Assembly (NCBI GenBank): GCA_964412125.1
Contig: CAYPNR010000005.1
Coordinates: forward strand, 1-49,458
Source: an uncultured Planctomycetota bacterium
Lineage (GTDB): Bacteria; Planctomycetota; SKW154
Reading direction: 5' to 3'
Length of the DNA stretch: 49,458 bases
Shown here: positions 24,744-48,689 of the stretch, one piece after another
Position numbering within the stretch: position 1 is the first letter of the stretch
Layout of the letters: each line of letters opens with the position of its first letter
Made by a program: the position numbers and the translations under genes
Notes under the pieces: model-generated
What the model saw: the letters and a program-made list of their open reading frames with translations, nothing else
Databases searched by the model: none
What the model was told of the DNA's origin: nothing

Positions 24744-24772
24744 ATTTTACACGCCGCGGACCCTTGCGTCAA
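24744..24772 (-). promoter_or_regulatory. Sigma70-like promoter: TTGACG-N17-TAAAAT
   Basis: The minus-strand -35 box at 24772-24767 overlaps the RACo stop codon. The -10 box is at 24749-24744, about 45 nt upstream of ATG 24698. Confidence 0.5.
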
Positions 24773-26688
24773 GCCCTGCCCGGCGCGCAGACCGACGGGA
24801 ACTCCGACAGGTCGGTGTGCGGAATGAAATTCGCCCTGCCGAACTCCTCCATGAAATCGACGCTGGTCATCAGATCCACATAAGTCATGCGTCGCGAGAC
24901 GTCCAGCATGCAGCGGTAGGCGTCCTCCGACGACAGCGCCATACGCGCGCCCGTGACCGAGGTGTTGCCCGCGAAGACGATCCGTCCCGGATCCACGTCC
25001 GGAAGCATACCGACGGTGACCGCGCTGCGCACGTTGACGCAGTTTCCGAAGCCGCCGGCCAGGTAGAAACGCTCTATCACCTCCAGCGGCATTCCCAACT
25101 GACGCAGGAGCAGTTTGATCGCCGCGTAGACCGCCGCTTTCGAGCGCAGGAGATTCGCTATGTCGACCTCGTTGAGGGTTATGGCGCGACCCGAGGCCGA
25201 CTCCTTTTCGTCGGCGAGCACGAATTCGGCCACGTCGTCGACCACCGCCAGCCGCTCCGAGGTCGACTCGCGGTTGAACTTGCCGTTCCGACCGAGTACG
25301 CCCGCGCAGAAGAGTTGCGCTATGGTGTCGAGCAAGCCGCTGCCGCAGATGCCGCGCGGCCGGCCTCCGCCTATCACGTCGAGGATGATTTTCGGCGGCG
25401 CGCCGCTTGCGCGTTCCACGCGCACGGCCTCGACGGCGCCTTCGGCGGCGCGCATCCCGTGCTCGACGCCGCTTCCCTCGAACGCCGGTCCGGCGCTGCA
25501 GGAGCAGCAGGCCAGGAACTCCTTGTTGCCGAGCACCACCTCGCCGTTGGTGCCGATGTCCACGAACAGCATCACCTCCTCGGCTTCGTTCATGCCCACC
25601 GCCACCACGCCCGCGGTGATGTCGCTGCCGACGTACGCGGCCACGCCCGGCAGCGGATAGAGCACCGCTCGATTGTGAATCTCTATGCCCACCTGCGCGG
25701 CGCGGATCGGCGGTACTATGCTCGCCACCGGCACGAACGGCTCGCGCCGCAGCCGCGTCGGATCGAGGCCCAGCAGGAAATGTATCATCGCAGTGTTGCC
25801 CGCCGCCACCATCCCCATGACCTCGTCGGTTCGGCGGCCGTTCCTCTCGCATATCGTCGAGACCAGATCGTTTATGTCGGAGACGACGAGTCTCTGCATC
25901 AGGTCGAAGGCGTCGTTCTGCTCCGCGTATATGATCCGCGAAATGTAGTCCTCGCCGTAGGCCATCTGCGAGTTGTACTTCGCCTCCATGTCGATGGTGT
26001 GTCCGTCGCTTAAGTCCACCAGGTGCACCACCACGGTCGTCGTGCCCACGTCCACCGCCACGCCGAGGGCGTGCGCGGCCGTGTCGCACGGCTCGACGTC
26101 CATTATCTCGTAGGTGTTCAGACGCATTCCGACGGTGACCGTCACCTCGCCGCCGCATTCCCGGAGCACTCTTCCCATCTTCTGCATGATCCGGTAGCCC
26201 GCCTGCAACGGCATCTCGGAGCGGCCCAGTTTCTTGCGCAGCGCCGTCCGCAGTCGCTCGTAGTCGCCTATCGGCCGGTCCGTCTCCGCCTCCTCCACCG
26301 TCAGCGGGACTTTCTTGACGAGCGGGTCGTACTCGAACCTGTCCGCCATGGAGACGCCTGCGAACCGCACCGCCTCCTCGCCGGTCAGAATCTTGCCGCC
26401 GGTCAGTCTCGCCTCCTCCGGCACCTCCACCGTCAGGTCGGTGGCCGCTTCGCTCCGGCAGGCCAGTATCCAGCCTTCCTTCCGCTCGGCCTCGTCCAGT
26501 TCATACGCGGACGGCCGTTGCGAGACCTTGCCGGAGAGGATCCTCACGCGACACTTGCCGCAGACCCCTTCTCCGCCGCAGACGGAATTGATGTAGACTC
26601 CGCCGGCCTGCGCCGCCTCAAGTACGGTCTGACCGCGTTTGATCGTCACCTGCACTCCGGACGGCAGGAATTTCACACGACATGACAT
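24769..26688 (-). CDS. Corrinoid activation/regeneration protein (RACo/AcsV type: 2Fe-2S ferredoxin + ASKHA ATPase)
   Basis: N-terminal plant-type ferredoxin motif (CGGEGVCGKCRV...ACR). ASKHA motifs GVAVDVGTTT, VDIGTNGE and CSCSAGPAFEG are present. Confidence 0.85.
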   Translation of the reverse strand: MSCRVKFLPSGVQVTIKRGQTVLEAAQAGGVYINSVCGGEGVCGKCRVRILSGKVSQRPSAYELDEAERKEGWILACRSEAATDLTVEVPEEARLTGGKILTGEEAVRFAGVSMADRFEYDPLVKKVPLTVEEAETDRPIGDYERLRTALRKKLGRSEMPLQAGYRIMQKMGRVLRECGGEVTVTVGMRLNTYEIMDVEPCDTAAHALGVAVDVGTTTVVVHLVDLSDGHTIDMEAKYNSQMAYGEDYISRIIYAEQNDAFDLMQRLVVSDINDLVSTICERNGRRTDEVMGMVAAGNTAMIHFLLGLDPTRLRREPFVPVASIVPPIRAAQVGIEIHNRAVLYPLPGVAAYVGSDITAGVVAVGMNEAEEVMLFVDIGTNGEVVLGNKEFLACCSCSAGPAFEGSGVEHGMRAAEGAVEAVRVERASGAPPKIILDVIGGGRPRGICGSGLLDTIAQLFCAGVLGRNGKFNRESTSERLAVVDDVAEFVLADEKESASGRAITLNEVDIANLLRSKAAVYAAIKLLLRQLGMPLEVIERFYLAGGFGNCVNVRSAVTVGMLPDVDPGRIVFAGNTSVTGARMALSSEDAYRCMLDVSRRMTYVDLMTSVDFMEEFGRANFIPHTDLSEFPSVCAPGRA

Positions 26689-26782: not shown

Positions 26783-27760
26783 TCACGCCAGGGCGCGACG
26801 CGTCTTCGCGAGCGCCGCCGCGGCCTCTTTCAGCCTCTCGCCGTTCGCCACCGTTTGCGCCCATTTGCCGGGCACCGCTTCGATTCCGCGGTGGACTCCG
26901 GCGAAGGCGCCCGCGATCGCCGCGACCGAGTCCGAGTCGCCCGAGCCTTCCGCCGCGTCCGTCACGCAGCGCTTGTAGTTTCCGTCGGCGCGGATGAGGA
27001 AGTGCGTCGCCAGCGCCAGGGCGCTTTCCGCCGTCCAGCCCTCACCGAGCGTCAGGTGCGGCGCGTCGTGGTCGCCGCCCGCCTTCGAGATCGCACGTCC
27101 CACTTCATCCCAGCCGCGCTCGACGTACTCCCGTTCGATCTCCTCGGCCGGAATGCGGGAGCGGAGGAAGTCGCGCCAGTAACGTGAGCGGTCGATATGC
27201 TTCTCGGCGGCTTCGAGCAGTCGCGCTCGCAGGTCCGCGGGAGAGACGCCCTCGAGCAGCAGGCGGACCGCGTGCGCCGTGGCGACCGCGGCCGCCGGCG
27301 CCGTCGGATGCGCGTGCGTCGCGAACGCCTGGCCGAACGCGTACGCCTCCAGTCGCTCGTCGTCGCTCGCGAAAACGAGTCCGACGGGCGCGACCCGCAT
27401 GTTCGCGCCGCAGCCCTTCGAGAGTCTGCTCCCGGACAGGTGCCACGCCACGCCTTCTTCGAGTCGCCTGCAGCCCTTCATGCACGTCAGCCCCGGCGCG
27501 TATCTGTTCTCGTCCGACCTGGACCACGCCACGAACTTCGTCACGAGCGCCTCCATGAACGCGCCGAACTCCGTTCCCGCCTCGCTCAACGCGTCCGCCA
27601 CGCACAACGCCATCTGCGTGTCGTCGGTGTACGGCACGCTCTCGCCTTCCGGCCACGCCGCCGTCTTCGGTATGCCGCGGACGAACTCGATCGGATAGCC
27701 GAGCGCGTCGCCGCACGCCTGTCCGAACACCGCGCCTTCGATCCTCGCCGCCTGCTCCAT
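26783..27760 (-). CDS. ADP-ribosylglycohydrolase family protein
   Basis: The ORF contains GDALGYPIEF...YTDDTQM...GCGANMRVAP...GDSDSVAAIAGAFAG. Confidence 0.88.
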   Translation of the reverse strand: MEQAARIEGAVFGQACGDALGYPIEFVRGIPKTAAWPEGESVPYTDDTQMALCVADALSEAGTEFGAFMEALVTKFVAWSRSDENRYAPGLTCMKGCRRLEEGVAWHLSGSRLSKGCGANMRVAPVGLVFASDDERLEAYAFGQAFATHAHPTAPAAAVATAHAVRLLLEGVSPADLRARLLEAAEKHIDRSRYWRDFLRSRIPAEEIEREYVERGWDEVGRAISKAGGDHDAPHLTLGEGWTAESALALATHFLIRADGNYKRCVTDAAEGSGDSDSVAAIAGAFAGVHRGIEAVPGKWAQTVANGERLKEAAAALAKTRRALA

Positions 27761-36072: not shown

Positions 36073-36351
36073 ATGGAGAACGCCGTGCGACTGCACGTCT
36101 TCTTCGAGGGCTTCGTTCAGGGAGTGGGCTTTCGTTACACCGCGGTTCACATCTCCCGCGACTTCGACGTCGCCGGCTTCGTACGCAACCTTTCCGACGG
36201 ACGCGTGGAGTTGGTGGCGGAGGGCGACGCGAAGGAGGTGCGCGGATTCGTCGGCCGCATCCGTGAGGTGATGCGCCGTTACATACACCAGGCGACCGTC
36301 ACGGAGGAGTCGCCGAGCGGTGAATTCGACTCCTTCCGCATCACATATTAG
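36073..36351 (+). CDS. acyP: Acylphosphatase
   Basis: 92 aa from ATG 36073, preceded by the RBS GGAGGG. The ORF contains V.G.VQGVGFRY......A....V.GFVRN..DG.VE..AEG. Confidence 0.88.
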   Translation: MENAVRLHVFFEGFVQGVGFRYTAVHISRDFDVAGFVRNLSDGRVELVAEGDAKEVRGFVGRIREVMRRYIHQATVTEESPSGEFDSFRITY

Positions 36352-38293
36352 GCTTTTGCCGGCCGTTCTCTACGGCGCCGCCTCGCTGGCCGCCCAGACC
36401 GCCGGTCTGCGACTCTATTTCGTTCTCTGTCACGCCAACGAGTTCTATCTTTCGCTGTATCTTTTCTTCTGGCTCGCCGCCGCCGCCTCCGGCGTTCTGC
36501 TGGCCGCTTCGCGTCCTCCGCGACGGGCGCTGCCGATCGCCGCCGCTTTCGGACTCTGGGCGCTGCCGCTGCAGGCGCTCGTCGCGTGGCTGTTCGGCCG
36601 TTTCGCCGTCGCCGGCGCCGTACCGCCTGTGACCTCCGCGGTCGCGCTTGCGGCGGCGCTCGCCGCGCCTCCGGCGCTCGCCTCAGGCGTTCTGTTTCCG
36701 TATCTGCTGCGCTTCGCGTCCGCGGCCTCGGTCTACGCCGCCGAGGTCGCGGGCTTCACCTTCGCCGCGCTGGTCGATCTCGCGCTGATGCCGTTTGCGG
36801 GGCCTTTCAATCTGTGCGCCGTCTTCGGCGGCGCGTTGTTCGTCTCACTTCTGTCGGACCGCTTCTCGAGCGGCGTCCGCGGCCGTTCCGCGTGGACGCT
36901 CCTCTTCGGCTGTCTCGTCGCTCTTCCGTTCTTTCCGACGCTCGTGCGCGGCGTCCATCCGGTCCGCGTCGCGGGTCTGAGACACACCGCGGCCGGTGTT
37001 GCGGCGCGCGCGCGCGAAGGCGCGGCGCTCTTCATCAACGGCGTGCCCGTGGAGACGGACGAACGCAGGAGTCGTGTGTTCGTCGATCTCGCCGTGCGGC
37101 TCGCGCCGCGTCGCGGCGCCGTGCTCCTGGTCGAGCCGGAGCCGTCGCTCTCGGAGAGGCGACTCAGGCAGGCGGGATTCTCCGTAACGGCGGTCTCCTC
37201 CGAGCCGGGACTGGCGGATGAGATGCCGGAGAGCGTGGCAGGCGGGACTTTGTTCGGCGTGCTCGACGGCGGCGGAAGATGGGATCTGGCGCTTATGGCG
37301 GTTTCCGTGCCGGCGAGCGCGGCCGGGGCGCGTTTCCTCAATCGCGAGACGCTCGCGCGGCTGAAAAAAGTCTGTCGCGGCCTGGTGGTCGCGCTGCCGT
37401 TTCCGGAAGGCCGTCGCGGCGCCGCTTACACCGCACTGGCCGCGTTCGTGACGGCGGCGTTCCGCGAGACCTTCGGCGAGGTCTGCGCGCTTCCGTCGGA
37501 GGCGCAGGGGATGTTGTTCGTCTCCAGCCTCCCGCTCGGCGCGCCGCGGGCGCTGTCGGAGAAGGTGTTTCTCGACCGTCTCGAAGCGGCGGAAGCGCCG
37601 GACGCGTCGCGGGCCGCTCTCGCGGCCGCGCGGCTCGGCATGGCCCACCACGCGGAGAGAACGGAGCAGCGCGCCCTCGGAAGTTATTTCCTGCGCGCGC
37701 GCGGGACGTGGGTCGTCATCGTCGTCGCGTTGCTGGCGATCGCCGCGGCGCTTGCGGGGCGTCGCGCGGCGTATCCCTTCGGCACGGGCGGCTGCGCCAT
37801 GGGCGTCCAGACGGCGGCGGCGGTCCTGCTGCAGTTGTCTGTGGGCGTGCTCTACGGAATGGTGACGCTGCTGATCGCGTGCTTCATGGCCTGTTCGTGG
37901 CTGGGCGCGGTCCTGGTCGGCCGCCGCGGGCGTTCCGGCGGCCGCGCGACGGTCTGTCGCCTCGCCGCGCCGGCGACGGTCGTGCTCGGGGCCGCGCTGC
38001 TGTGCGGCGCCGCGCGCTCGGGCGCCGCCGCGGCCGCGACGCTCGCCTTCGTCTGCGCGTCTTTCGCGGGTCTGGGCGCGGGCGCCGGATACGCGTCCGC
38101 GGCGCGGGTGATGCAGCCGGCCCGCGCTTACGCGGCGGACCTCGCGGGCGCGTTGCTCGGAGCCGCACTCGGACTGCTCGCGCTGCCGTTCGGATTCGAT
38201 GTGATGGCGCTTTCCTCCGCCGTCCTCGGAGCGGGCGCGTTCGTCGCGGCGCTCCGGCTCACAAGGGAAGCGGCGGCAGATGATGCGTCGTGA
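36320..38293 (+). CDS. Polytopic membrane protein with a central spermidine-synthase-like (degenerate) domain
   Basis: Two multi-TM modules each end in YAA(E/D)(V/L)AG...LPF(A/G)G. A ~200-aa soluble insert (VLLVEPEP...WDLALMAVSVPAS...FLNRETL...L) lies between them. The start could be GTG 36320 or TTG 36356. Confidence 0.55.
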   Translation: MNSTPSASHIRLLPAVLYGAASLAAQTAGLRLYFVLCHANEFYLSLYLFFWLAAAASGVLLAASRPPRRALPIAAAFGLWALPLQALVAWLFGRFAVAGAVPPVTSAVALAAALAAPPALASGVLFPYLLRFASAASVYAAEVAGFTFAALVDLALMPFAGPFNLCAVFGGALFVSLLSDRFSSGVRGRSAWTLLFGCLVALPFFPTLVRGVHPVRVAGLRHTAAGVAARAREGAALFINGVPVETDERRSRVFVDLAVRLAPRRGAVLLVEPEPSLSERRLRQAGFSVTAVSSEPGLADEMPESVAGGTLFGVLDGGGRWDLALMAVSVPASAAGARFLNRETLARLKKVCRGLVVALPFPEGRRGAAYTALAAFVTAAFRETFGEVCALPSEAQGMLFVSSLPLGAPRALSEKVFLDRLEAAEAPDASRAALAAARLGMAHHAERTEQRALGSYFLRARGTWVVIVVALLAIAAALAGRRAAYPFGTGGCAMGVQTAAAVLLQLSVGVLYGMVTLLIACFMACSWLGAVLVGRRGRSGGRATVCRLAAPATVVLGAALLCGAARSGAAAAATLAFVCASFAGLGAGAGYASAARVMQPARAYAADLAGALLGAALGLLALPFGFDVMALSSAVLGAGAFVAALRLTREAAADDAS

Positions 38294-40523
38294 CGCCTTC
38301 GTCGTGACGCGCAAGCGCCCAGTCCATTACGTCCCTGTCCACGGTGAAGTAGATTATCTGCCAGCCGTGGCGCGAGAGGTCCAGAAGACCTTCCAGCAGT
38401 CTCTGGAGACGGGTCGGATCGCATGAGAGAAACGGATCGTCGAGCAGGAGGAAGGTACGGGTCTCGCCGAGGAGGCGTTCCAGCAGCGCGAGACGCGTCG
38501 CGAAGAGCAGTTGCGTGCGCGTGCCGGCGGACAGAAACGACGCGGCTATCGTGTCGCCGGAGGCGGTCTGCACGAAAAGCGACTCGTCGCGCCACAGGAC
38601 GGCGGTGTACTGACCGCCGGTGAACCGCGCGAGATGAGCGGACGCGGAATCCGCGTTGCCGGAGAGCGCGGCGTTTATGAGAGCGTCCTGATCGGAGGCG
38701 AGCGAGTCCACCACCGATATCGCCAGAAGCGCGGCTTCGCGGCGATGCAGATGCTCGGCGAGTTTCTCCTGCAGCACGGCCTTGCGCACCCATATCTCCT
38801 CGGGTCCGTGACAGCCGAGCGTCGCGAGTGTCTTTTCTATCTCGCCGATTCTTTGCTCCATCTGAACCTTCAACTCCCGCGCCTCCGGCAGCCGCCGCCG
38901 GATGTCCTCCTCCTTTATCGGATCGTAGTCGCCTTCCTCGGAGAGGAACTGCTCCAGTTCGGTCAGTCGCTTGAACCACTGTTCCTCGGGGACGCCGAGC
39001 ATCTGGTTCAGAGACTCGGTACGCGCGGCGAGTTCGCGCTGAAAGGTGCTCTTGCGCGTTATCAGCGCTTCGAGTTCGGAGAGACTGTCGCATCCGGTCT
39101 GATGGCGTAACGAGCCGACCTCGCGTTGCGCCTCGTCGAGGGCCTGCTGACGCGCCTGCATCAGTTTGGCCAGTTCCTCCAGTTGTGCGCGGTCGCGGGT
39201 CGCCTCCATGAAGAGCAGTTCGGCGCGGGCCCTGGACTCACGCGAGCCGGCGCGTCCCGTCTCTATCCAGCGCTCCATCTCGTCTATGTCGGACGCCTGC
39301 TCGCCGACCGACTGGAAAAGAGCGAACAGTTCGTCCTTCGCCGCCTGTACCGCGCCGGTCAGCCGTCGGTCGCGCATGATCGTCATGAGACCGCCCGCCG
39401 TCGCCACCACGCCGACCGCGCACAGCGCCCAGAGAGCGGGCGTCTGCGTGGCCGCCAGAACGCCGAACACCGCGGAAAGCAGCAAACCTATCACCACGGT
39501 GATCACCAGCAGCGGCCTGCGTCGACCCGCCGTGCGACGCTCCTGATGCAGACGTTTGAGCGCGACGAGCATGTCTTCGAGTTGCGGAAGGAGTTCGACC
39601 TCCTTTCGCTCCCATTCCGCGGCGCGTCGGCGCATCTGCGCGGCGTCGCCCTCCTTCCGCTGCGCTTCCTTCTCCTGCGCCTGGTAGCGATTGGCCAGTT
39701 CGCTCATCGCTTCGCTCAAGGCGCGCGCGCGCGCCTCCGCGTCGCGCCATCTGTCCATCACCTGAGGACCCGCCGCGGCCAGTCGCGCAATCGCCTCTTT
39801 CAGGCGCTCCACTTCCGCCAGTTCCGCTTTCGCGCGCAGACACACCGCTTTCTGCCGGAGACGTTCCATCCGCGCCAGTTCCGCCTCCAGACGTCGTTCC
39901 TCCTCCGCCATTCGTTCGGCGTCCGCTTTCTCGCGTTCGAGGTCCGCGGCTTCCGCTTCGACGGCGCGGAGTTGCGCCAGTTCCGCTTCTATCCGCCTTA
40001 CGTCGTCCCTGGTTCGTCGTTCGCCGATGTTCGCCCATCTGCCGCGAACGGTGATGCCGACCTCCTCCGCCACCAGACTCTTGACGCGCGCAAGACCGCC
40101 GGCCAGGCCGCTCAACTGCCGGCGTAGAAAGTTCCACCAGCGCGTCGCTTCGGCCGCCGGACCTATCTCCAGCCGGCTGTCCCGTACCACCAGTAAGTTG
40201 CGGAGCAGCAGAAACATGTCCCCGCCCTTCATGGCGAACGCCTCGTCCAGCCGCTTCCGTCCGTCGTAGACCTGCTCCGCGCCGGAGTCCTCCACCACGA
40301 CCACACGTACATCCTGCGGCTCGGACAGATCGTAGCGGTTGAAGCCCGGAAAAAACCGACGCTCGCGTCGGCCCCTCACGCCGAAAAGAGCGTCGAGTAC
40401 CGCGTCCAGCAGCGTCGTCTTGCCGGATTCGTTGTCGCCGCCTATCACGCAGAGCCGTCCGGGCTCGATGCGGACGTCGCGGAGAAGAAAGTATCGCCGA
40501 ACGTCGATCTCCTTCAGCCTCAT
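38259..40523 (-). CDS. SbcC/Rad50/YhaN-like coiled-coil ATPase with a central transmembrane hairpin
   Basis: ATG 40523 overlaps the upstream TGA (ATGA). Walker A GGDNESGKTT, long E/R/A/L coiled coils, two TM helices at aa ~337-383, C-terminal LSAGTRTQL and Walker B FLLLDDPF are present. The rest of the 1343-aa track ORF is shadow frame. Confidence 0.8.
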   Translation of the reverse strand: MRLKEIDVRRYFLLRDVRIEPGRLCVIGGDNESGKTTLLDAVLDALFGVRGRRERRFFPGFNRYDLSEPQDVRVVVVEDSGAEQVYDGRKRLDEAFAMKGGDMFLLLRNLLVVRDSRLEIGPAAEATRWWNFLRRQLSGLAGGLARVKSLVAEEVGITVRGRWANIGERRTRDDVRRIEAELAQLRAVEAEAADLEREKADAERMAEEERRLEAELARMERLRQKAVCLRAKAELAEVERLKEAIARLAAAGPQVMDRWRDAEARARALSEAMSELANRYQAQEKEAQRKEGDAAQMRRRAAEWERKEVELLPQLEDMLVALKRLHQERRTAGRRRPLLVITVVIGLLLSAVFGVLAATQTPALWALCAVGVVATAGGLMTIMRDRRLTGAVQAAKDELFALFQSVGEQASDIDEMERWIETGRAGSRESRARAELLFMEATRDRAQLEELAKLMQARQQALDEAQREVGSLRHQTGCDSLSELEALITRKSTFQRELAARTESLNQMLGVPEEQWFKRLTELEQFLSEEGDYDPIKEEDIRRRLPEARELKVQMEQRIGEIEKTLATLGCHGPEEIWVRKAVLQEKLAEHLHRREAALLAISVVDSLASDQDALINAALSGNADSASAHLARFTGGQYTAVLWRDESLFVQTASGDTIAASFLSAGTRTQLLFATRLALLERLLGETRTFLLLDDPFLSCDPTRLQRLLEGLLDLSRHGWQIIYFTVDRDVMDWALARHDEGVTTHHLPPLPL

Positions 40524-41581
40524 CTCGACTCCCCCGCCGCGCGGAACGCTTCCAGGCCCATCTTCAGCGCAAGGTGTCGAGTCTCGTCCGGCGCCTGACG
40601 CCCGCGAAGCCTGCCGGCGAACTGCTGCACCAGCGGGTTCTGCTCCATCAGGTGCCGCCAACTCTGAGTGTGGTTGAGAACGTGCAGTTCGGAGTACTTG
40701 GAAGCGTATTCGTTCAGTATCTGGTGGAGTATCTCGTTCAGGTCCACTTCGCCGAGCGCCGTGCAGCCCTCCACTTCCACCTGCATCCTGCATCGCGGGT
40801 CCGCGTGCTCGTCGAGCAGGCGACGCAACTCCACCTGCTTCTCCCATTCGTTGCCCGCGTGGAAGTAGAAGACCAGACGCTCCACGTAGTCCAGGGCCGT
40901 CACCTCCTCCGGCGAGACGTCCACTCCCTGCTCGGTCATCTCCACGACGGCGGCGTGACGCCTGCCGCGCTCGTTCCGAATCGGAAGCGGACTTCCCGGC
41001 ACACACGCGGTGCGGCCGGCCACCTCGCCCGACCAGAATCTGCCGTGCGGATGGCCGAGCGCCACGTAACGCGCGTTCAGCCGCTCCATGTCCGCCGACA
41101 GCAGTGAGAAAAACGGATCCTTGCGAGTGGATATCTCGATGGCGAGGTCGGACGCCTCCTCGAAGAACGGCGTGGCGTGCGCCACGAAGACGTCCACCGC
41201 GGGCGCGTCCTGCGGCAGCACCGCCGCGAGGCGTCCGCGACTCTGAAACGCCGCGCCCGAAACGCGCAGCCCTTCCACCTCCACCACTTCGCCGGGCTCG
41301 CGCAGAACGTGTACGTTCTCCGGCGGAGGCGAGTCGGGAGGAAAAGCGTCCGCGTCGCGGCAGCCCGGCGACACGAACACGTGACCGGGCGAGACCTCCT
41401 TCAACAGTTCCTCCGCGGCCTCGCGCGTCGCGGGTGTCGGAACGCCGTCGTAGAGGTCGCCGGCTATGATCAGATGCGCTCCGCGGCCGCGCGCCCGCTT
41501 GACTATCTGCTTGAGCGCTTCGATACGCTCGACTCTGTCGCGCCGCAGGTGTATGTCCGCAGTGTGCAGCAGCAAAGGCAC
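40520..41581 (-). CDS. SbcD/Mre11/YhaO-like calcineurin-fold phosphoesterase with a variant motif III
   Basis: GTG 41581 follows AAGGAG. Motifs HTADIHL, IAGDLYD, FVAHAT and ALGHPH are present. GCRD stands where GNHD is expected. Confidence 0.75.
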   Translation of the reverse strand: MPLLLHTADIHLRRDRVERIEALKQIVKRARGRGAHLIIAGDLYDGVPTPATREAAEELLKEVSPGHVFVSPGCRDADAFPPDSPPPENVHVLREPGEVVEVEGLRVSGAAFQSRGRLAAVLPQDAPAVDVFVAHATPFFEEASDLAIEISTRKDPFFSLLSADMERLNARYVALGHPHGRFWSGEVAGRTACVPGSPLPIRNERGRRHAAVVEMTEQGVDVSPEEVTALDYVERLVFYFHAGNEWEKQVELRRLLDEHADPRCRMQVEVEGCTALGEVDLNEILHQILNEYASKYSELHVLNHTQSWRHLMEQNPLVQQFAGRLRGRQAPDETRHLALKMGLEAFRAAGESR

Positions 41582-41584
41582 GAC

Positions 41585-42394
41585 TCACTCCTTCCGCTGG
41601 CCCACTTTGCGCCTGTAGCGCCGACTCATGTTCATGAGGAAGTTGCGCTCCTTGCGGCTCAGCGCGGCCATTCCTTTCCTGCTCACCTTCGTCAGCACCC
41701 TGTCGAGTTGCTCTTCGTCCTCGGCCTCGCTGAGCGCGTCGCTGACCTGCCTGTGCAGCCACCATTTCTTCAGCGACATTCTCGCCCTGGGCTCCAGAAG
41801 GAAGACGCCGAGCGCCACCGTCAGACCGCCTGTCTGACTGACGACGCCGAAGATGCTCATCTCGGGAGCGTTGGCGAACGCGGCGGCCACGATCAGCGCC
41901 GGCGCGAGCCATCGCGCGGAGGCGCCGCGGAAGAAGCGAAGATACGGAAAATAGGCGGTGCAGAAGAACGCCGCCGCGATCGCGCCGCCGCCGAAGCCCA
42001 CCGCGGGAGCGCCGGTCACCTTCGACGCGGCGAAGTTCGTCGTCGCCGCGCACATGAAAACGGTCGCGGTCCCGAGAACCTGACCGAGACGGCGCAACGC
42101 GAACCACAGAAACAGATACAGAATGAACAGATTCGCCGCCAACTGCCACAGGGTGCGATGGAGAAAGACGCTCGTGAACGCGCGAAGCGGAGCCGCCATT
42201 CCTCCTCGACCTTGGGCGCTCCACGACTCCAGCAGAAGCACCTGCTCGGAGGGCGTCCGCTCTCCGTACTGGTAGACGAAGACGACGCACAGCAGCGCCA
42301 TCACCACCAGTACGACGACGGAGAAGCGCCCTCCGAGAAAGCGGTGGGCGCCCTCCGCAAGGTCTTCCATCAGGCTTTCAGGGTCGGTCCTCAT
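41585..42394 (-). CDS. Rhomboid-like membrane protein, apparently non-catalytic
   Basis: Rhomboid-like FLHRTLWQLAANLF...LRRLG is present. VGFGGGAIAA stands where GxSG is expected, and SQTGGLTVALG stands where HxxGxxxG is expected. There is a basic C-terminal tail. ATG 42394 overlaps the queC-like TGA. Confidence 0.6.
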   Translation of the reverse strand: MRTDPESLMEDLAEGAHRFLGGRFSVVVLVVMALLCVVFVYQYGERTPSEQVLLLESWSAQGRGGMAAPLRAFTSVFLHRTLWQLAANLFILYLFLWFALRRLGQVLGTATVFMCAATTNFAASKVTGAPAVGFGGGAIAAAFFCTAYFPYLRFFRGASARWLAPALIVAAAFANAPEMSIFGVVSQTGGLTVALGVFLLEPRARMSLKKWWLHRQVSDALSEAEDEEQLDRVLTKVSRKGMAALSRKERNFLMNMSRRYRRKVGQRKE

Positions 42395-43044
42395 GCTATG
42401 CCGCCGACAGCGATGTCAAAGGCGACGCACGACTGACACCTGCCGCAGGGCTCCGGACCGCCGAGATAGCAACTCCAGAGCAGGTCCAGCGGCACGCCTA
42501 TACGCCTGGCCGTACGGCCGACTTCCTTCTTGGTCATGTGCGCGGTGTAGGAGACCAGAGCGACGCCGCTCAGCGTGGACAGCCGCAGCGACGCGTTCAC
42601 CGCGGCGATGAACTGTATCGAGTTGTCCTGGAAGAACACCGCCTCCTCGCGATTGAATCCGGCCACCACCGCGTCGCAGCCCAAGGCCTCCGCGAAGCAG
42701 GCGGCCATGTGCACGAAAACGCCGTTGCGGTTGGGCACCCAGACGCTTTCGGCGGCGTTCTTCATCCGCTCCTTGCTCGCGGTGTATCCCACGGTGGGAA
42801 CGTTCATCTCGGGATTGACCAGGGCGGTGCGGGTCAGTTTCGCCAGCCAGTCGAGCGCTATGACGCGATGCGGAACTTTGTAGAGTTTGCAAAGGGCCCT
42901 GGCGGCCTCCGTCTCGCGACGCGCGGCCTTCTGATTGTAGTCGAAAGTGATCGCCAGACGCGCGGTTCCTTCGTCGACCGCCTTTTTGAGACAGACCGCG
43001 CTGTCCAGTCCGCCGGAGAGGAGTATCACCGCGCCTTCGATCAT
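42391..43044 (-). CDS. queC: QueC-family PP-loop ATPase (7-cyano-7-deazaguanine synthase-like, divergent)
   Basis: SGGLDS PP-loop, FDYNQKA, VPNRN and the C-terminal Cys cluster C-x7-C-x2-C-x2-C are present. NREEAVFFQDNS stands where ETDFSGYPDCR is usual. Confidence 0.7.
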   Translation of the reverse strand: MIEGAVILLSGGLDSAVCLKKAVDEGTARLAITFDYNQKAARRETEAARALCKLYKVPHRVIALDWLAKLTRTALVNPEMNVPTVGYTASKERMKNAAESVWVPNRNGVFVHMAACFAEALGCDAVVAGFNREEAVFFQDNSIQFIAAVNASLRLSTLSGVALVSYTAHMTKKEVGRTARRIGVPLDLLWSCYLGGPEPCGRCQSCVAFDIAVGGIA

Positions 43045-43185
43045 CTCCGCACGTCCTCAACCGTTGGCGGCGCACGGGGCGCCTCTTCACTAAATTCGAC
43101 TGTTCCGGAACGCCCGCGTCCGCGCCGGCCCTCGGTGGACGCTCCGAACGAGGCTTTTCGCCCGCGGCCCCGCGCCCGCGTCGAT

Positions 43186-43214
43186 ATTCTACCGCGGCGC
43201 GGCATCTCTGTCAA
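43186..43214 (-). promoter_or_regulatory. Near-consensus sigma70 promoter: TTGACA-N17-TAGAAT
   Basis: Minus-strand -35 box at 43214-43209 and -10 box at 43191-43186. The predicted transcription start is ~135 nt upstream of the queC-like ATG at 43044. Confidence 0.55.
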
Positions 43215-43377: not shown

Positions 43378-45348
43378 TCACACCTCCAACTGGCGACGCA
43401 TCTCCATGTCGTAGAGCACGCGCTCCTTCTTCTTGTCTATGCCCAGTTCGCGACGCTTGGAGGCGATGTGCTCGATCATCATTCCGGCCATCTCCTGCGG
43501 AGTTTCGGCGACCGCCCACCTGGCGCCGAGGTCCGCTTCTATGCCGCCGAAGAGATAGTCGGCGAACTCGGGCGCGCCGTTCACCGGCAGGCCGATGCCG
43601 AAGACGGTGTAGACGCCGCTGGCGACGAAGTAGTGGCCTATCGAGATGGCCTTCTCGCTCATCCACTCCGGCGCGGCGCCGGCCAGCGGCAACTGCGAGA
43701 TGTCCTCGCCCAGGAAAACGTCCCTGTCGGCGACGCCTTCCTTCACCACGCCGCTCGCCGCTATCAGCAGGCGGCTGTTGTCGACGCAGGAGCCGCAGTG
43801 GAGCACCGGCGGGATGCCGACGGCGCGACACACCTCCGCCAGTCCTTCGCCGGCGTACTTCTCGGCCGACTCCGGCCGCATCATGTCCGCCATGCCGCAG
43901 GCCATCGCGGAGCAGCCGGTCTGGAGCACCAGAACGTTGTTCTTCACCAACTCCTTCACCACCTCGGTGTGGAACTGGTCGTGCAGCGTCTTGACGTTGT
44001 TGCATCCGACCACGCCGGCGACGCCGAGAACGCGACCGCCGACGATGTTGTCGTTCAGCGGACGATAACCGGTGCGGAACGAGCCGCCGAGCATGTGCAC
44101 GACCGACTCGTGTGTGAATCCCGCGACGAGGTCCTGGACGTCGTTCGGGATGTTGGTCCGACCGTGACGGTTGGGGAAGTTTTCGACGGCGGCGCGGACT
44201 ATCTCACGAGCGGTTTCCAGCGGCCGCTCCTCGTCGAACTCCATGTGCGTGGCGCCGGGGATCCTGCCCTTGGGACTGGTGGTTATCAGTTTGGTGTGGA
44301 AGCAGTTGGTGACCTGCTGCAGGCCCTGCATGATGCACTGGACGTCCACGATCATCGCCTCGACGGCGCCGGTGGCGATGGCGGCTTCCTGGAAGAGGAA
44401 GTTTCCGGCGACGGGAATGCCGTGACGCATCAGAATCTCGTTGGCGGTGCAGCACATGCCCGCGAGATTGATGCCGGCGGCGCCCTTGTCCTTGGCCAGT
44501 TTTATCATGTCCGCCTCGTTGGCCGCCACCACTATCATCTCCGACAGCACCGGCTCGTGGCCGTGCACCACGATGTTGACGTGGTCCTCCTTCAGGACTC
44601 CGAGATTTATCTTCGAGCGCATGTGCCAGGGCTGACCGAAGAGGATGTCCTGGAGTTCGGTGGCGATCATGGAGCCGCCCCATCCGTCGCCGAGCGCGCA
44701 ACGGGTGCCCTGCAGCATCAGGCTCTTGTAGTGCTGGTCCACGCCTATGTGCGTTCTGTGCATGATCTCCACGATTTCGCGGTCGACGCCGCGCGGAGTC
44801 GCGCCGAATTTCTTCCAGACCTCCTGTCGGGCCTTCGGCGCGCGCTCGGTGAAGCGGATGTGGCCGTGCTGCTGGCCGAACTCGTCGAAGCAGACCTCGC
44901 CCACCTCCACCGCGACCTCCTGGAGGCTTTTGCCTTCGGTTTCGACGCCGAGATATCCGGCGACGTCCATGAGTTTCTGCGTGTCCTTGATCTGATAGCC
45001 TTTGATATTGCCCTTGGCGGTTTCCAAAAACACGTGAGCCACGTCGCGGCCGTGATCGGAGTGCGCGGCCGCGCCTCCGGCTATCATTCTGACGAAGTTA
45101 CGCGCCGCTATCGTGTTGGCGTCCGCGCCGCAGACGCCGCGATCCGCCTTCTTCGTTATGCGGCACGGCCCCATGAAGCATATCCGGCAGCAGATGCCGT
45201 CCGAGCCGAACTTGCAGCGGGGCGACTGTTTCTTGTGGCGCACCCAGCAGTGGTCTATCCCCTGCTCGTTCATGGAGTCCACAAGGCCCTGCAGCCCCGG
45301 CTCGATGGTCACCTTCTTCTGACCCTTCTCGGGTTTTTCCTCTGCCAT
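43378..45348 (-). CDS. cooS: Anaerobic Ni-Fe carbon monoxide dehydrogenase catalytic subunit
   Basis: The ORF contains CKFGSDGICCRICFMGPCRI...HGHEP...GMCCTANE...GCNN...CGSCVDN. I prefer ATG 45348 (GGAGGAGAGGAG upstream) over ATG 45390, which overlaps cooC. Confidence 0.92.
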   Translation of the reverse strand: MAEEKPEKGQKKVTIEPGLQGLVDSMNEQGIDHCWVRHKKQSPRCKFGSDGICCRICFMGPCRITKKADRGVCGADANTIAARNFVRMIAGGAAAHSDHGRDVAHVFLETAKGNIKGYQIKDTQKLMDVAGYLGVETEGKSLQEVAVEVGEVCFDEFGQQHGHIRFTERAPKARQEVWKKFGATPRGVDREIVEIMHRTHIGVDQHYKSLMLQGTRCALGDGWGGSMIATELQDILFGQPWHMRSKINLGVLKEDHVNIVVHGHEPVLSEMIVVAANEADMIKLAKDKGAAGINLAGMCCTANEILMRHGIPVAGNFLFQEAAIATGAVEAMIVDVQCIMQGLQQVTNCFHTKLITTSPKGRIPGATHMEFDEERPLETAREIVRAAVENFPNRHGRTNIPNDVQDLVAGFTHESVVHMLGGSFRTGYRPLNDNIVGGRVLGVAGVVGCNNVKTLHDQFHTEVVKELVKNNVLVLQTGCSAMACGMADMMRPESAEKYAGEGLAEVCRAVGIPPVLHCGSCVDNSRLLIAASGVVKEGVADRDVFLGEDISQLPLAGAAPEWMSEKAISIGHYFVASGVYTVFGIGLPVNGAPEFADYLFGGIEADLGARWAVAETPQEMAGMMIEHIASKRRELGIDKKKERVLYDMEMRRQLEV

Positions 45349-45382
45349 CTCCTCTCCTCCAATCCTGCTGCAGACGTTTTTT

Positions 45383-46162
45383 CTATTCATTGCCGCCGGC
45401 GGGGCGCTCCCGCGTCCGGTCCGTCCGACCGAGACGCGTGAGAATCTCCTCCGCCGACGCCGACAACTCTTCGGTGACCCGATACTCCCGCTCCAGCGCG
45501 GGAATGTACGGCACGCTGCCGACCAGGTCGACGCCGGACGGCAGTCGACTGCGGACGTAGTCCAACTGCTCCGGTCCGCGCACCTTCGTCGCCACGCATC
45601 CCGTTCTCTTCATCTTCAGGTCGTCCGCCAGGCGTTTGATCCGCGCGACCGTCGCCATCGCCGCGGGAGTCGGCTCCGCCGCCACCAGCAGCCAGTCCAC
45701 GCCCGTCACCGTCGCCCGCCCGAGCGGCTCCACGCCCGCCTCCAGGTCGAGCACCAGCGCTTCCTTGCGCGAGAGCACCATGTGGTTCAGCAGCGTGCGC
45801 AGGAAAACGTTTTCCGGACACGCGCAGCCGCCGCCGCCGCTCCGGACCGCTCCCAGCACCATCAGCCGCACGCCGTCGGCCTCCCTGTAGTACCGCTCCG
45901 GAATGTCGCCGACCTGCGGATTCATGCGGAACATCACGCCCCATCCGCCGCTTCCGGCCTCGGTCCGCTCGCGGATGAGGTCGCGCATCTCGGCCAGCGG
46001 CGCCAGGTCCGTCTCGTCCACGCCCAGAGCGAGTCCGAGATTGGCGTCCGGGTCCGCGTCGAGGGCGTAAACGACGCGTCCGGACGCGGCCAAGGCCTTC
46101 GCCAGAGCCGCGCTGGTCAGTGTCTTGCCGACGCCGCCTTTGCCGCTCACGCAGAGTTTCAA
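45383..46162 (-). CDS. cooC: CODH nickel-insertion accessory ATPase
   Basis: From TTG 46162 the protein begins KLCVSGKGGVGKT. The metal-binding motif GGGCACPE is present and the fold is MinD/ParA-like. The ORF-track TTG at 46219 has no SD sequence. Confidence 0.85.
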   Translation of the reverse strand: MKLCVSGKGGVGKTLTSAALAKALAASGRVVYALDADPDANLGLALGVDETDLAPLAEMRDLIRERTEAGSGGWGVMFRMNPQVGDIPERYYREADGVRLMVLGAVRSGGGGCACPENVFLRTLLNHMVLSRKEALVLDLEAGVEPLGRATVTGVDWLLVAAEPTPAAMATVARIKRLADDLKMKRTGCVATKVRGPEQLDYVRSRLPSGVDLVGSVPYIPALEREYRVTEELSASAEEILTRLGRTDRTRERPAGGNE

Positions 46163-46231
46163 GCGTCCCGCCTCATCCGCGTCACATTGAGATTTTGCAC
46201 GAGCGAAGCGCGTTTTCAAGTTATTAAGGGA

Positions 46232-46987
46232 TCAAAACGCGTCTCGCCTCCGTCGTCGTCGGAGGCGGCCCGCAAGACGCAGCAGAAGGAGTCGCGCGAC
46301 CGCGACGAAGAAGCGAAGCGTGTCGGGCAGCGGACGAATGTGGCTGGCCGGGTTCGGACGATAGACGCAGCGGACCGGCGCGGCGGCCAGGCGCAGCCGG
46401 GCGAGCCGCGCGAGAACGACCAGTTCGGAGTCGAAAGCGAAGCGGCGCGCCCGCAGCGGAAGTTCCGCCACGGCCGGGACGCGCACGGCCTTGAGACCGC
46501 ACTGGGTGTCGGCCAGCCGCAGACCGAAAAGCATGCCGAGCAGGGCGCTCATGGCGCGATTGGTGAGCCTGCGCAGAAACGGCATCCGCGAGGCGAAACG
46601 CATGCGATCGCCGACCACCACGTCCAGGCCGCCTTCTTCGAGGATTCCGACGAGGCGCGCGGCGTCGGCCGGATGATGCTGAAGGTCGGCGTCGAGCAGG
46701 ACCGCCGGCCGGACGCCTTTTGAGGCGAGATAGGAGAGGCCGAGGCGGCACGCGGCGCCTTTGCCGCGGTTCCGCTCCGTTCGAAGAACGGCGGCGCCGG
46801 CGAGACGCGCTTCCTCCGCGGTCTCGTCTGCGGAGCCGTCGTCCACGACGAGGACCGACAGCCCTTCTCCGCGGAGCGCGGAGACGAGTCGGGAGACGGT
46901 GCGGGAAGCGTTGTAGGCCGGCACCAGCGCCCACGCTTCAGCGCGGCCGGGCGTCCGGGACGATGGAGCGGCCGTTTCGGCGCACAT
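46232..46987 (-). CDS. GT2-family glycosyltransferase
   Basis: ATG 46987 follows GGAGGT. The ORF contains LVPAYNAS...VVDDGSADET...LDADLQH...DTQCGLK. It overlaps the recJ 3' end by 50 nt. Confidence 0.8.
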   Translation of the reverse strand: MCAETAAPSSRTPGRAEAWALVPAYNASRTVSRLVSALRGEGLSVLVVDDGSADETAEEARLAGAAVLRTERNRGKGAACRLGLSYLASKGVRPAVLLDADLQHHPADAARLVGILEEGGLDVVVGDRMRFASRMPFLRRLTNRAMSALLGMLFGLRLADTQCGLKAVRVPAVAELPLRARRFAFDSELVVLARLARLRLAAAPVRCVYRPNPASHIRPLPDTLRFFVAVARLLLLRLAGRLRRRRRRDAF

Positions 46988-48689
46988 CGTGCACCTCCAG
47001 TTCCACGGTGGCGACCGCGGCCCTGCGCTGGATGCGGGGAGTGTAGGCGATCTCGCAGGTCTGGTCGGAAAGCGACGCAAGCGCCTCCTCCACGTCGGCT
47101 CCGCCCGTCATGACGGCCTTGACCGGCAGCGGTCCTTGACGCGCGAAGAAGAGAAGTTTCTTGCCGCCCCTGCCGTAGCGCCTCGGCGCTCCTTGAATGA
47201 CCACCTCCCTGGTCGCCAGCAACGGCCTGCGATTGCCTTCGCCGAAGGGCTCCAGTCTGTCCAGTTCCTCGACGGCCGTCACGGAAAGGTCGCCGAAGTC
47301 CACTAAAGCGTCGATCTCGATGTTTCTCTCCGGAGCGTCGCGGCCGATGCGCTGATGGGCCACTTCTATGAGGCGACGCCGGAACGCTTCGATGTGCTCG
47401 GTACGGATCTCGAAGCCCGCGGCGAAACTGTGACCGCCGAAGTCGCGGAGAAACTCGCGACACTCCCGGAGCAGTTCGTAAATGTCGCAGCCCTCGATGG
47501 AGCGGGCGGTTCCCTTGCCGGTCTCGCCGTCTGTGACGATGAGCACGACCGGGCGGTTGAGTTCGTTGGTGAGACGACTGGCGACGATGCCCGTGACGCC
47601 GGTGTGCCAGGAGCCGTCGAGGATGAGCAGAGGCTCGTCGAGAGCGTTCTTTTCGAGCATGGCGCGCACCGAGGAGAGGATTTCCGCCTCTATTTTCTGG
47701 CGCATGCGGTTGTCGGCCTCCAGTTGTCTGGCGAGTTCGTACGCCTCGACGGTTTCGGAGGCGCAGAGCAGCCGCAGCGGAACCTCCGCGCGGCCGATGC
47801 GCCCCGCGGCGTTGATACGCGGCGCGAGACGGAAACTTATGTGACGCGCGCCGAGACGGGTCTTGTCGAGACCGGTGGTCTCCAGCAGCGCCCGCAGGCC
47901 CGTGTTGCGCGTCGCCTCCAGCGCGCGAAGACCGAAACGGACCAGCGTCCGGTTCTCGTTCACCAGCGGAACGACGTCCGCGACGGTGCCCATCGCCACC
48001 AGCGCCATGCCGTTCAGGATGTGTCGCTCGAACTCCCCGCCGAGCCGGCGTTCGCGACTCATCCGCTCGCCCAGCGCCCACGCCAGTTTGAAGGCCACGC
48101 CGACCCCGGCCAGTTCCGAAAACGGATAGCCGCAGCCGGACACCTTCGGATTGATGATGGCGTTGGCCGCCGGCAGTCGCTCGCCGGGATTGTGATGGTC
48201 GGTGATTATGACGTCGACGCCGTGCTCCCGCGCCCACGCCACTTCGGCCTCGCTGGTGATGCCGCAGTCCACGGTTATGACCAGGGAGCAGCCGTCCTCC
48301 TGCGCTTTCTTTATCTGTTTGAGTCCGACGCCGTAGCCCTCGGTCAGTCGGTTGGGGATGTATGTGGAGACCTGGACGCCGAGGAAGCGAAGGAAACTGT
48401 AAAGCAGCGCGCAGGAGGTTATTCCGTCCACGTCGTAGTCGCCGTAGATGAGCACCCTTTCGCGATGCGCGACGGCCTGACGGATCCGCTCCACGGCGCG
48501 CTCCATGTCGGCGAAGAGAAACGGATCGTGCAGGCTGTCGAGAGTGGGCGAGAGGAAGTTGCGCGCTTCCTCGGGATCGAGCATACCGCGTGCGGCGAGA
48601 ACGCGGGCGGTGAGATCCGAGACGCCGAGGCGCTGCGCCAGGGCCCGCCAGGCCACCTCCGGCACCGCGTGGAGACGCCAGTGCGCCAC
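46938..48689 (-). CDS. recJ: Single-stranded-DNA-specific exonuclease RecJ
   Basis: DHH motifs IYGDYDVDGITS, VTVDCG and ITDHH are present, as is DHHA1 GGH..AAG. GTG 48689 directly follows the upstream TAA. Confidence 0.92.
   Translation of the reverse strand: MAHWRLHAVPEVAWRALAQRLGVSDLTARVLAARGMLDPEEARNFLSPTLDSLHDPFLFADMERAVERIRQAVAHRERVLIYGDYDVDGITSCALLYSFLRFLGVQVSTYIPNRLTEGYGVGLKQIKKAQEDGCSLVITVDCGITSEAEVAWAREHGVDVIITDHHNPGERLPAANAIINPKVSGCGYPFSELAGVGVAFKLAWALGERMSRERRLGGEFERHILNGMALVAMGTVADVVPLVNENRTLVRFGLRALEATRNTGLRALLETTGLDKTRLGARHISFRLAPRINAAGRIGRAEVPLRLLCASETVEAYELARQLEADNRMRQKIEAEILSSVRAMLEKNALDEPLLILDGSWHTGVTGIVASRLTNELNRPVVLIVTDGETGKGTARSIEGCDIYELLRECREFLRDFGGHSFAAGFEIRTEHIEAFRRRLIEVAHQRIGRDAPERNIEIDALVDFGDLSVTAVEELDRLEPFGEGNRRPLLATREVVIQGAPRRYGRGGKKLLFFARQGPLPVKAVMTGGADVEEALASLSDQTCEIAYTPRIQRRAAVATVELEVHDVRRNGRSIVPDARPR

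Follow-up and report, generated by a model that had tools for sequence, protein, structure and literature searches.

SbcCD/Mre11–Rad50 complexes unite a calcineurin-fold nuclease with an ATPase whose split ABC head sits on a long antiparallel coiled coil. In B. subtilis SbcE and SbcF (YhaN and YhaO), the metallophosphoesterase gene lies immediately upstream of the gene for an SMC/SbcC-like ATPase, whose AAA_27-type head is N-terminal and whose two heptad-repeat arms enclose a central domain that is hydrophobic and stands where a CxxC hook would be. This central domain has been described as unique, its first half being hydrophobic and insoluble; it was not read as a membrane anchor (Krishnamurthy et al. 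2009, PMC2811018). Here, we describe a four-gene block of an uncultured Planctomycetota bacterium in which a pair of this kind is preceded by queC and by the gene of a rhomboid-like protein. The block lies on contig CAYPNR010000005.1, of which nucleotides (nt) 1–49,458 were analyzed as a whole and are called the window. Its four co-oriented minus-strand genes encode, in this order, a predicted 7-cyano-7-deazaguanine (preQ0) synthase QueC of 217 amino acids (aa; 42391–43044), a pseudo-rhomboid of 269 aa with a rhomboid-fold membrane core and a long C-terminal helical tail (41585–42394), an SbcD/Mre11-like calcineurin-fold phosphoesterase of 353 aa with a GTG start (40520–41581), and an SbcE/YhaN-type ABC ATPase of 754 aa that resembles Rad50/SbcC (38259–40523). 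The main interest of this locus is the unstudied, predicted membrane-anchored Rad50-like family it belongs to and the offshoot it represents—one that bears a pseudo-rhomboid and whose nuclease site erodes.

The ATPase carries the Pfam domains AAA_23 and AAA_27 (the latter at 30.7 versus a cut-off of 22), and its family profile matches the Rad50 heads of P. furiosus at 1.9e-23, while it falls far below the cut-offs of the curated Rad50 and SbcC models. Its head motifs are Walker A GDNESGKT, signature LSAGTRTQ, and Walker B LLLDDPF. The architecture is that of a split head and two long helical arms with a hydrophobic hairpin at the apex, the place of the zinc hook in Rad50; no CxxC zinc hook occurs anywhere in the 754 aa. 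This two-helix hairpin, predicted to be transmembrane (TM), spans residues 335–384 (39372–39521, minus strand; translation RRPLLVITVVIGLLLSAVFGVLAATQTPALWALCAVGVVATAGGLMTIMR). Its helices are linked by TQTP and reach Kyte–Doolittle peaks of 2.63 and 1.93. An AlphaFold2 (AF2) model of the ATPase, which was built from three sequences, is of low confidence (predicted local distance difference test, pLDDT, of 49.8) and was used for secondary structure alone, has long helices at residues 170–334 and 363–619.

Two features of the head set this family apart from SbcCD/Mre11–Rad50, in addition to the exchange of the zinc hook for a predicted TM hairpin. In 50 diverse family members (alignment A1; window residues 692–731), Walker B always ends in Asp-Asp (hhhDDPF) and not in Asp-Glu, and the H-loop position is taken by Ala, Val, or Ile (GWQIIYFT[AV]), the His being usually missing. 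A YhaN-like AAA_27 protein of 931 aa retains SHD; its confident alignment to the ATPase is restricted to the C-terminal head (hhalign 99.5%). The DDPF form of Walker B is shared with SbcE, to which the window ATPase is likened by description and not as an established ortholog—SbcE is longer (963 versus 754 aa), and the H-loop His is missing in the window protein. The window operon differs further from SbcE/SbcF in its two additional genes, queC and that of the pseudo-rhomboid, and in a decayed nuclease motif III.

A word-indexed protein search found almost no relatives of the ATPase or the phosphoesterase, and it was a full HMMER scan that revealed the family. With the ATPase as query, 3181 relatives passed E < 1e-3, and 598 of them also E < 1e-10; most are 730 to 800 aa long and collinear along the full length. 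Every full-length relative (147/147) is hydrophobic over about 50 residues around positions 325–385. Hence, the hairpin is a hallmark of the family; the sequence-only reading had placed it at the coiled-coil apex and had taken it for a peculiarity of this locus, which it is not. A genome scan with one genome per species detected at least 562 loci. Among their sources are Bacillota, Chloroflexota, Aminicenantes, Thermodesulfobacteriota, Calditrichota, Thermotogota, and other Planctomycetota as well as a Halorientalis plasmid and a Thermoplasmatota archaeon. The 76 loci outside the block-bearing clade (L016–L091) stem from many bacterial phyla and include two archaeal records. In nearly all of these that retain the respective flank, the SbcD-like gene lies directly upstream of the ATPase gene, usually overlapping it. 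None of the 76 has a QueC or rhomboid homolog within 7 kb. The two-gene SbcD/SbcC-like module is ancient and widespread.

On the downstream side, 16 of 48 outside loci, mostly of Bacillota/Syntrophomonadaceae, have a co-oriented gene for a metallo-β-lactamase-fold hydrolase (Lactamase_B_2), which may be a lineage-specific third component. A conserved third partner of the wider family could be rejected, as the other neighbors are unrelated housekeeping genes by Pfam counts. The sole studied relative of this family is the B. subtilis pair SbcE/SbcF, and the literature searched held nothing relevant on a link between rhomboids and QueC, on membrane-anchored SMC-like proteins, or on Rv1277/Rv1278.

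The complete block could be followed through its rhomboid-like member. Homologs of this protein (~47–50% identity) were traced to their contigs, and the flanking genes were then read. The order QueC–Rho–SbcD–SbcC is found in the window and L001, in L004 to L007 with L172 to L174, in L008 to L011, and in L014. In L013, which like L014 comes from a species-level genome collection, the block is cut at its upstream end. All contigs with enough flank show QueC–Rho–Metallophos–AAA_27, and in most cases the stop codon of one gene overlaps the start codon of the next. The four-gene unit proposed in the sequence-only reading is thus encountered in every related locus where it could be seen, and the lack of co-occurrence that would have refuted that reading was not observed. 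By their source names, these contigs belong to uncultured Planctomycetota, of which four or more divergent lineages possess the block.

Reciprocal BLAST between the lineages yields the four block genes alone as common elements, and at least three different genomic contexts surround them. In the window, cooC–cooS lies upstream and a gene for a 657-aa membrane protein downstream; in lineage B, a β-propeller gene, Peptidase_M54, and TsaD lie upstream; in lineages C and D, rbfA–infB–nusA lies downstream, and lineage C has, in addition, a radical-SAM/SPASM gene upstream. By pairwise identity, all four proteins group the lineages alike, L014 (and, where known, L013) being the most distant, which argues for inheritance of the block as a unit. 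For L004 versus L174, the ratios of nonsynonymous to synonymous substitution rates (dN/dS) are 0.069 for queC, 0.122 for rho, 0.080 for sbcD, and 0.148 for sbcC. Between the window and the 99.5%-identical contig L001, 24 codon changes are synonymous and 7 nonsynonymous. Recurrence in varied contexts and purifying selection on all four genes mark the block as a real conserved operon.

The rhomboid fold of the second gene product is supported by Pfam (Rhomboid, 26.5 bits versus a cut-off of 22.6), by a match of its profile to GlpG of H. influenzae (2NR9, E = 1.5e-6), and by an AF2 model with a pLDDT of 75.6. The top 34 Foldseek matches of this model in the PDB are all GlpG, followed by iRhom; the target-normalized TM-score to GlpG is 0.60 to 0.72. 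The catalytic residues are gone: the Ser of GxSG in TM4 is replaced by Gly (GFGGG) and the His in TM6 by Gln (SQTGG). Among 10 homologs, the His is missing in all and the Ser is retained in two. The loss of the Ser/His dyad makes this protein a pseudo-rhomboid and not a protease, as had been proposed from the sequence at the outset. The C-terminal tail contains a DUF6576-like segment (residues 224–258; 41621–41725, minus strand; Pfam DUF6576, 30.3 bits versus a cut-off of 27.3), which is the best conserved stretch of the protein, with the invariant columns E..EE.LD..L.K...G...L..ER.FL..S..Y. By analogy with the topology of rhomboids, this helical tail should be cytoplasmic.

The pseudo-rhomboid shares its TM core with GlpG and with the iRhom/Derlin pseudoproteases, and with the latter also the loss of catalytic residues under retained purifying selection (dN/dS about 0.12). 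It differs from them in its bacterial origin and its DUF6576-like tail, taken to be cytoplasmic; its tie to a Rad50-like TM hairpin is suggested by gene context alone. All clusters of its homologs with usable flanks lie within the four-gene block, and the 7-kb surroundings of the 76 more distant SbcD/SbcC-like pairs lack it. By this distribution, the pseudo-rhomboid is seen as a clade-specific addition.

The phosphoesterase has diverged within the same clade. The window protein is recognized by Pfam Metallophos (23.4 bits versus a cut-off of 21.5), and its family profile matches E. coli SbcD (6S6V) at 4.5e-21 and also Mre11; the score against the curated SbcD model TIGR00619 is far below the cut-off (15.1 versus 77.65 bits). 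Motifs I (ADIH), II (GDLYD), IV (AHAT), and V (GHPH) are intact, and motif III reads PGCRD in place of GNHD, a further difference from SbcCD/Mre11–Rad50. GCRD had been noted before as an atypical version of the family; the motif is indeed present, and it is a lineage-specific decay and not a family trait, as each of the 71 relatives from outside the clade retains GNHD. Within the clade, GNHD is kept in L008, L011, and L014 and altered to GCRD in the window, to GE[HN]D in lineage B, and to GNRD in L013. The clearest predicted case of a dead nuclease is the L013 protein (L013:824–1918), in which four motifs are changed (DxH to DxN, GD to GN, GNHD to GNRD, and GH to GG) and whose reading frame is full-length and still overlaps the ATPase gene. 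Selection persists on the SbcD-like gene, with dN/dS values of 0.08 to 0.15 in a sister lineage. Such a loss of motif III under purifying selection indicates that nuclease chemistry seems dispensable in part of the pseudo-rhomboid-bearing clade.

We consider it somewhat better than even, with a probability of roughly 55%, that an SbcEF-like membrane-tethered Mre11/Rad50 module gained a pseudo-rhomboid in one Planctomycetota clade and is co-transcribed there with a housekeeping queC. The operon would be vertically inherited on the chromosome of this clade. Its SbcD-like phosphoesterase would pair with the SMC-like ABC ATPase in the manner of SbcF/SbcE (YhaO/YhaN), and where the antiparallel coiled coil reaches its apex, the two-helix TM hairpin would stand in for the zinc hook. 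With the apex held in the membrane, the ATP-gated DNA-binding heads would be suspended from its inner face at a distance of at most about 25 nm. Eukaryotic pseudo-rhomboids hold client TM helices. In a similar fashion, the membrane-embedded core of the pseudo-rhomboid might bind or organize the TM hairpin of the ATPase, and its tail might contact the arms or heads. As the nuclease active site has decayed repeatedly in a protein that stays under selection, the selected activity in this clade may be tethering or an ATP-driven handling of DNA and not cutting. QueC would most likely be merely co-transcribed and translationally coupled and not be a mechanistic subunit.

Several points weigh against this reading. 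The biological role of B. subtilis SbcE/SbcF is itself loosely defined, YhaN being associated with double-strand-break repair and transformation. The membrane insertion of the hairpin is predicted from hydropathy alone, and the contact between hairpin and pseudo-rhomboid is deduced from gene context. The shift toward a nonnucleolytic tethering role is proposed from gene context together with motif decay, and a role of the module at DNA ends or in DNA tethering is likewise an extrapolation. Given the Asp-Asp Walker B and the loss of the H-loop His, the ATPase cycle may differ from that of Rad50. Transcription of all four genes from a single promoter is a prediction, and the very old coupling of queC and rho, which overlap by 4 nt in four of five lineages, is tighter than expected for a passenger.

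The significance of the locus is threefold. Detected in at least 562 species-level genomes of many bacterial phyla and some archaea, the Mre11/Rad50-like pair constitutes a very large and almost unstudied family whose coiled-coil apex is predicted to lie in the membrane. The Planctomycetota variant in turn offers a natural experiment, as nuclease residues have been lost repeatedly in pseudo-rhomboid-bearing lineages alone while selection persists. This suggests Rad50-like machines with a nonnucleolytic, membrane-linked role. Third, candidate clients of bacterial rhomboid pseudoproteases are few, and the ATPase would be one of them. The linkage of queC to this module is probably incidental; otherwise, the locus would widen the newly discovered regulatory uses of 7-deazaguanines.

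Such an involvement of QueC is the first alternative to be weighed. In this case, 7-deazaguanine use would control the membrane-bound Rad50-like complex, either through preQ0 or an intermediate as ligand or signal or through conjugation of carboxy-deazaguanine to a partner protein, similar to Cap9. The type IV CBASS protein Cap9 keeps a canonical QueC core and yet modifies a protein, and the spacing of its YxQ(x)5E motif is the same as in the block QueC (PMC13329287). With a near-canonical core being capable of protein modification, a functional role of QueC is conceivable; nothing specific favors it here. Consistent with such a role, queC overlaps the pseudo-rhomboid gene by ATGA in four of five lineages, it has always stayed with the block although both flanks were rearranged, and neither queD nor queE lies near any block locus.

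The protein itself looks like a metabolic enzyme. It matches Pfam QueC at 5e-49 and exceeds the cut-off of the TIGR00364 equivalog (168.2 versus 150.3 bits), while staying below that of the E. coli-type model NF008317 (71 versus 378). The SGGLDS PP-loop and VPNRN are present, and the zinc site C(x)7CxxCxxC is one residue shorter than the canonical C(x)8CxxCxxC. The canonical substrate-pocket motifs of QueC are YxQxHxxE and YPDC (Libby et al. 2026). The window protein has YNQKAARRE, in which the His of YxQxHxxE is missing, and FQDN for YPDC; elsewhere in the clade, the latter reads FPDN. A metagenome scan with the QueC proteins of the clade gave at least 585 relatives, of which the best 80 were examined for motifs and loci L092–L171 for neighbors. 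All of these best 80, with identities of 40 to 55%, carry YGQ[RK]AA..E, VWVPNRNG, and FPDNS. Among the QueC matches listed, only sequences in this identity range were returned; hence, they define a QueC subtype and add nothing to the block clade.

The 149 neighboring open reading frames (ORFs) of these relatives include PTPS/QueD 23 times, DUF366 21 times, radical-SAM/QueE 10 times, and RecJ 6 times; the other three block genes were not found beside the best 80. As the variant motifs occur in all 80 relatives within que operons, they are a trait of the subtype and not a sign of lost function. By its motifs, the block QueC is assigned to this large YGQ[KR]AA/VWVPNRNG/FPDNS subtype, which normally resides in queD/DUF366/queE operons. 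It shares with canonical QueC the PP-loop, VPxRN, the Zn-Cys cluster, the length, a score above the TIGR00364 cut-off, and closest relatives outside the clade that sit in queD–queC–DUF366–queE clusters. It differs in the missing His of YxQxHxxE and in F[PQ]DN for YPDC, both subtype-wide, and in its separation from queD/queE and its union with a membrane-module operon. The sequence-only reading had called the protein a divergent QueC-like one; given the equivalog score and the occurrence of its variant motifs in at least 80 QueC proteins beside QueD, DUF366, and QueE, this description does not hold. The block queC is predicted to encode a genuine preQ0 synthase of the queuosine pathway, whose oddity is its operon partners alone.

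For a regulatory or protein-modifying QueC, these data are unfavorable: the motif variants are no mark of repurposing, and both the length (217 aa) and the equivalog score are those expected of a metabolic enzyme. Furthermore, queC is by far the best conserved block gene (58–76% identity), and its dN/dS of about 0.06 is as for a housekeeping enzyme. No TGT- or Cap10-like partner accompanies it, and its match to the PDB entry of Cap9 (7e-8) is weaker than those to QueC structures (3e-16). A conserved N-terminal glycine as target of deazaguanylation was sought in the three partner proteins and found in none of them. We therefore regard an integral role of QueC as rather unlikely.

Two further observations concern this QueC subtype and its neighbors. 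DUF366 is about as frequent a neighbor as QueD (21 versus 23 of 149 ORFs), usually directly downstream of queC, and may be a preQ0/queuosine-pathway component. No homolog of PTPS, DUF366, or QueE occurs in the window or in the block loci, while recJ lies at 46938–48689 of the window, ~4 kb from queC, with a GT2 gene, cooC, and cooS in between. In the distant relatives L110, L115, and L150, recJ is located two genes upstream of queC (recJ–queD–queC–DUF366–queE), and its position in the window looks like a remnant of an older recJ…queC synteny.

A second alternative holds that the block is conserved synteny without shared function, that is, a row of unrelated housekeeping genes for tRNA modification, a membrane protein, and a DNA-repair pair, which common descent and joint transcription hold together, with no complex beyond the SbcD–SbcC pair. 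Operons mixing unrelated housekeeping genes are known. The surroundings of the block are of the housekeeping type, it lies beside nusA–infB–rbfA in two deep lineages, and the core pair occurs without queC and the rhomboid gene in hundreds of genomes. Against mere synteny stand the flanks, which were rearranged at least twice per side while the block remained unbroken across lineages at 30 to 50% identity for three of the four proteins, and the pseudo-rhomboid, which is found nowhere outside the block. In addition, the SbcD active site is eroded in at least three of four block lineages as opposed to 0/71 outside. That this erosion is confined to the pseudo-rhomboid-bearing clade suggests that function changed along with the gene composition. 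Conserved order without a shared function is, hence, an unlikely explanation, slightly more so than a QueC that takes part.

A more far-reaching version joins elements of the preferred reading with an active QueC. Here, the pseudo-rhomboid would be an intramembrane clamp for the TM apex of the Rad50-like ATPase, the complex would have moved from cutting to ATP-driven membrane–DNA tethering or sensing, and QueC would supply a regulatory 7-deazaguanine ligand or modification. Such a clamp and tether would explain the repeated loss of nuclease motifs under purifying selection; as a whole, this version is speculative and improbable.

Finally, the block might serve in defence against phages or plasmids or in DNA modification, with Dpd or QatABCD as its relatives, an analogy drawn in the sequence-only reading. 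QueC-family proteins do occur beside ATPase or nuclease genes in QatABCD, type IV CBASS (Cap9/Cap10), and Dpd, and SMC-like ATPases are common in defence: in PADLOC, the ATPase matches mad3 at 1e-17 and LmuB at 7e-14. These matches are generic for the head domain, the match of QueC to QatC (E = 0.007) is likewise a generic one, and the other genes of mad3 or LmuB systems were not found in the window; the pseudo-rhomboid and the phosphoesterase gave no PADLOC match, which speaks against a known defence system. The QatC model NF041925 scores 13.7 bits versus a cut-off of 280, and the 217 aa of QueC compare with a QatC architecture of ~400 aa. The signature partners of these systems and their transglycosylase are not present: the genes of the window include no QatA/B/D, CD-NTase, or Cap10, and neither TGT/DpdA nor other dpd genes were seen in a Pfam survey of the window ORFs and in the gene tables of the block loci. 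The window is no defence island; housekeeping genes fill all of its 49 kb, its composition is native and flat, and housekeeping neighbors also prevail in the wider family. The identity pattern fits vertical inheritance. Searches for the pseudo-rhomboid among viral contigs and for the ATPase among plasmids brought up no relatives, which together with the flat composition speaks against an origin from a mobile element. A defence function is, hence, very unlikely and largely refuted on context.

The sequence-only reading, thus, retains its conserved block and its inactive rhomboid and loses its divergent QueC, its locus-specific hairpin, and its link to Dpd and Qat. Its remark that it knew of no described system of this composition is supported, as none was found in PADLOC or in the literature searched.

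Its outline of the operon was reproduced from the coordinates, including the promoter, the four genes, and their junctions. These junctions are an ATGA overlap between queC and the rhomboid gene, a 3-nt gap between the latter and the SbcD-like gene, and a second ATGA overlap between the SbcD-like and the SbcC-like gene. The ORF list gives an entry of 1343 aa over the ATPase (38259–42290), which results from a high-GC frame without an upstream stop; the start of the ATPase is the ATG at 40523, in agreement with the MR[IL] start in all homologs. A sigma-70-like match TTGACA-N17-TAGAAT, with 11 of 12 consensus positions, lies at 43186–43214 on the minus strand, inside the 333-nt gap between cooS and queC. 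It is unique in 5.8 kb on both strands, where 0.3 are expected from shuffles, and marks a candidate promoter as judged by its match to the consensus only. The 5′ leader of about 140 nt (43045–43185, minus strand) contains no recognizable regulatory RNA. It has no Rfam match at gathering or permissive thresholds, its fold is unremarkable (z-score of −0.94), and an alignment of five upstream regions from homologous loci reveals no conservation; these three approaches gave no sign of a riboswitch or other leader RNA.

Some neighbors of the block deserve mention. The 657-aa protein encoded at 36320–38293 on the plus strand is very hydrophobic and polytopic, lacks a Pfam match, and is convergent with the ATPase gene with a 3′ overlap of 35 nt; its gene is present in the same-species contig L001 and absent from the other block lineages. 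An ADP-ribosylglycohydrolase gene is located at 26783–27760, ~10.5 kb from the block, and one is also found ~3.3 kb downstream of the block in L004 to L006 of lineage B; this proximity in two lineages is probably a coincidence. Directly upstream of the operon, cooS and cooC (43378–46219) encode an anaerobic CO dehydrogenase and its maturation ATPase, and a RACo-type corrinoid activator is encoded at 24769–26688. These three genes point to an anaerobic organism that possibly uses CO or the acetyl-CoA pathway.

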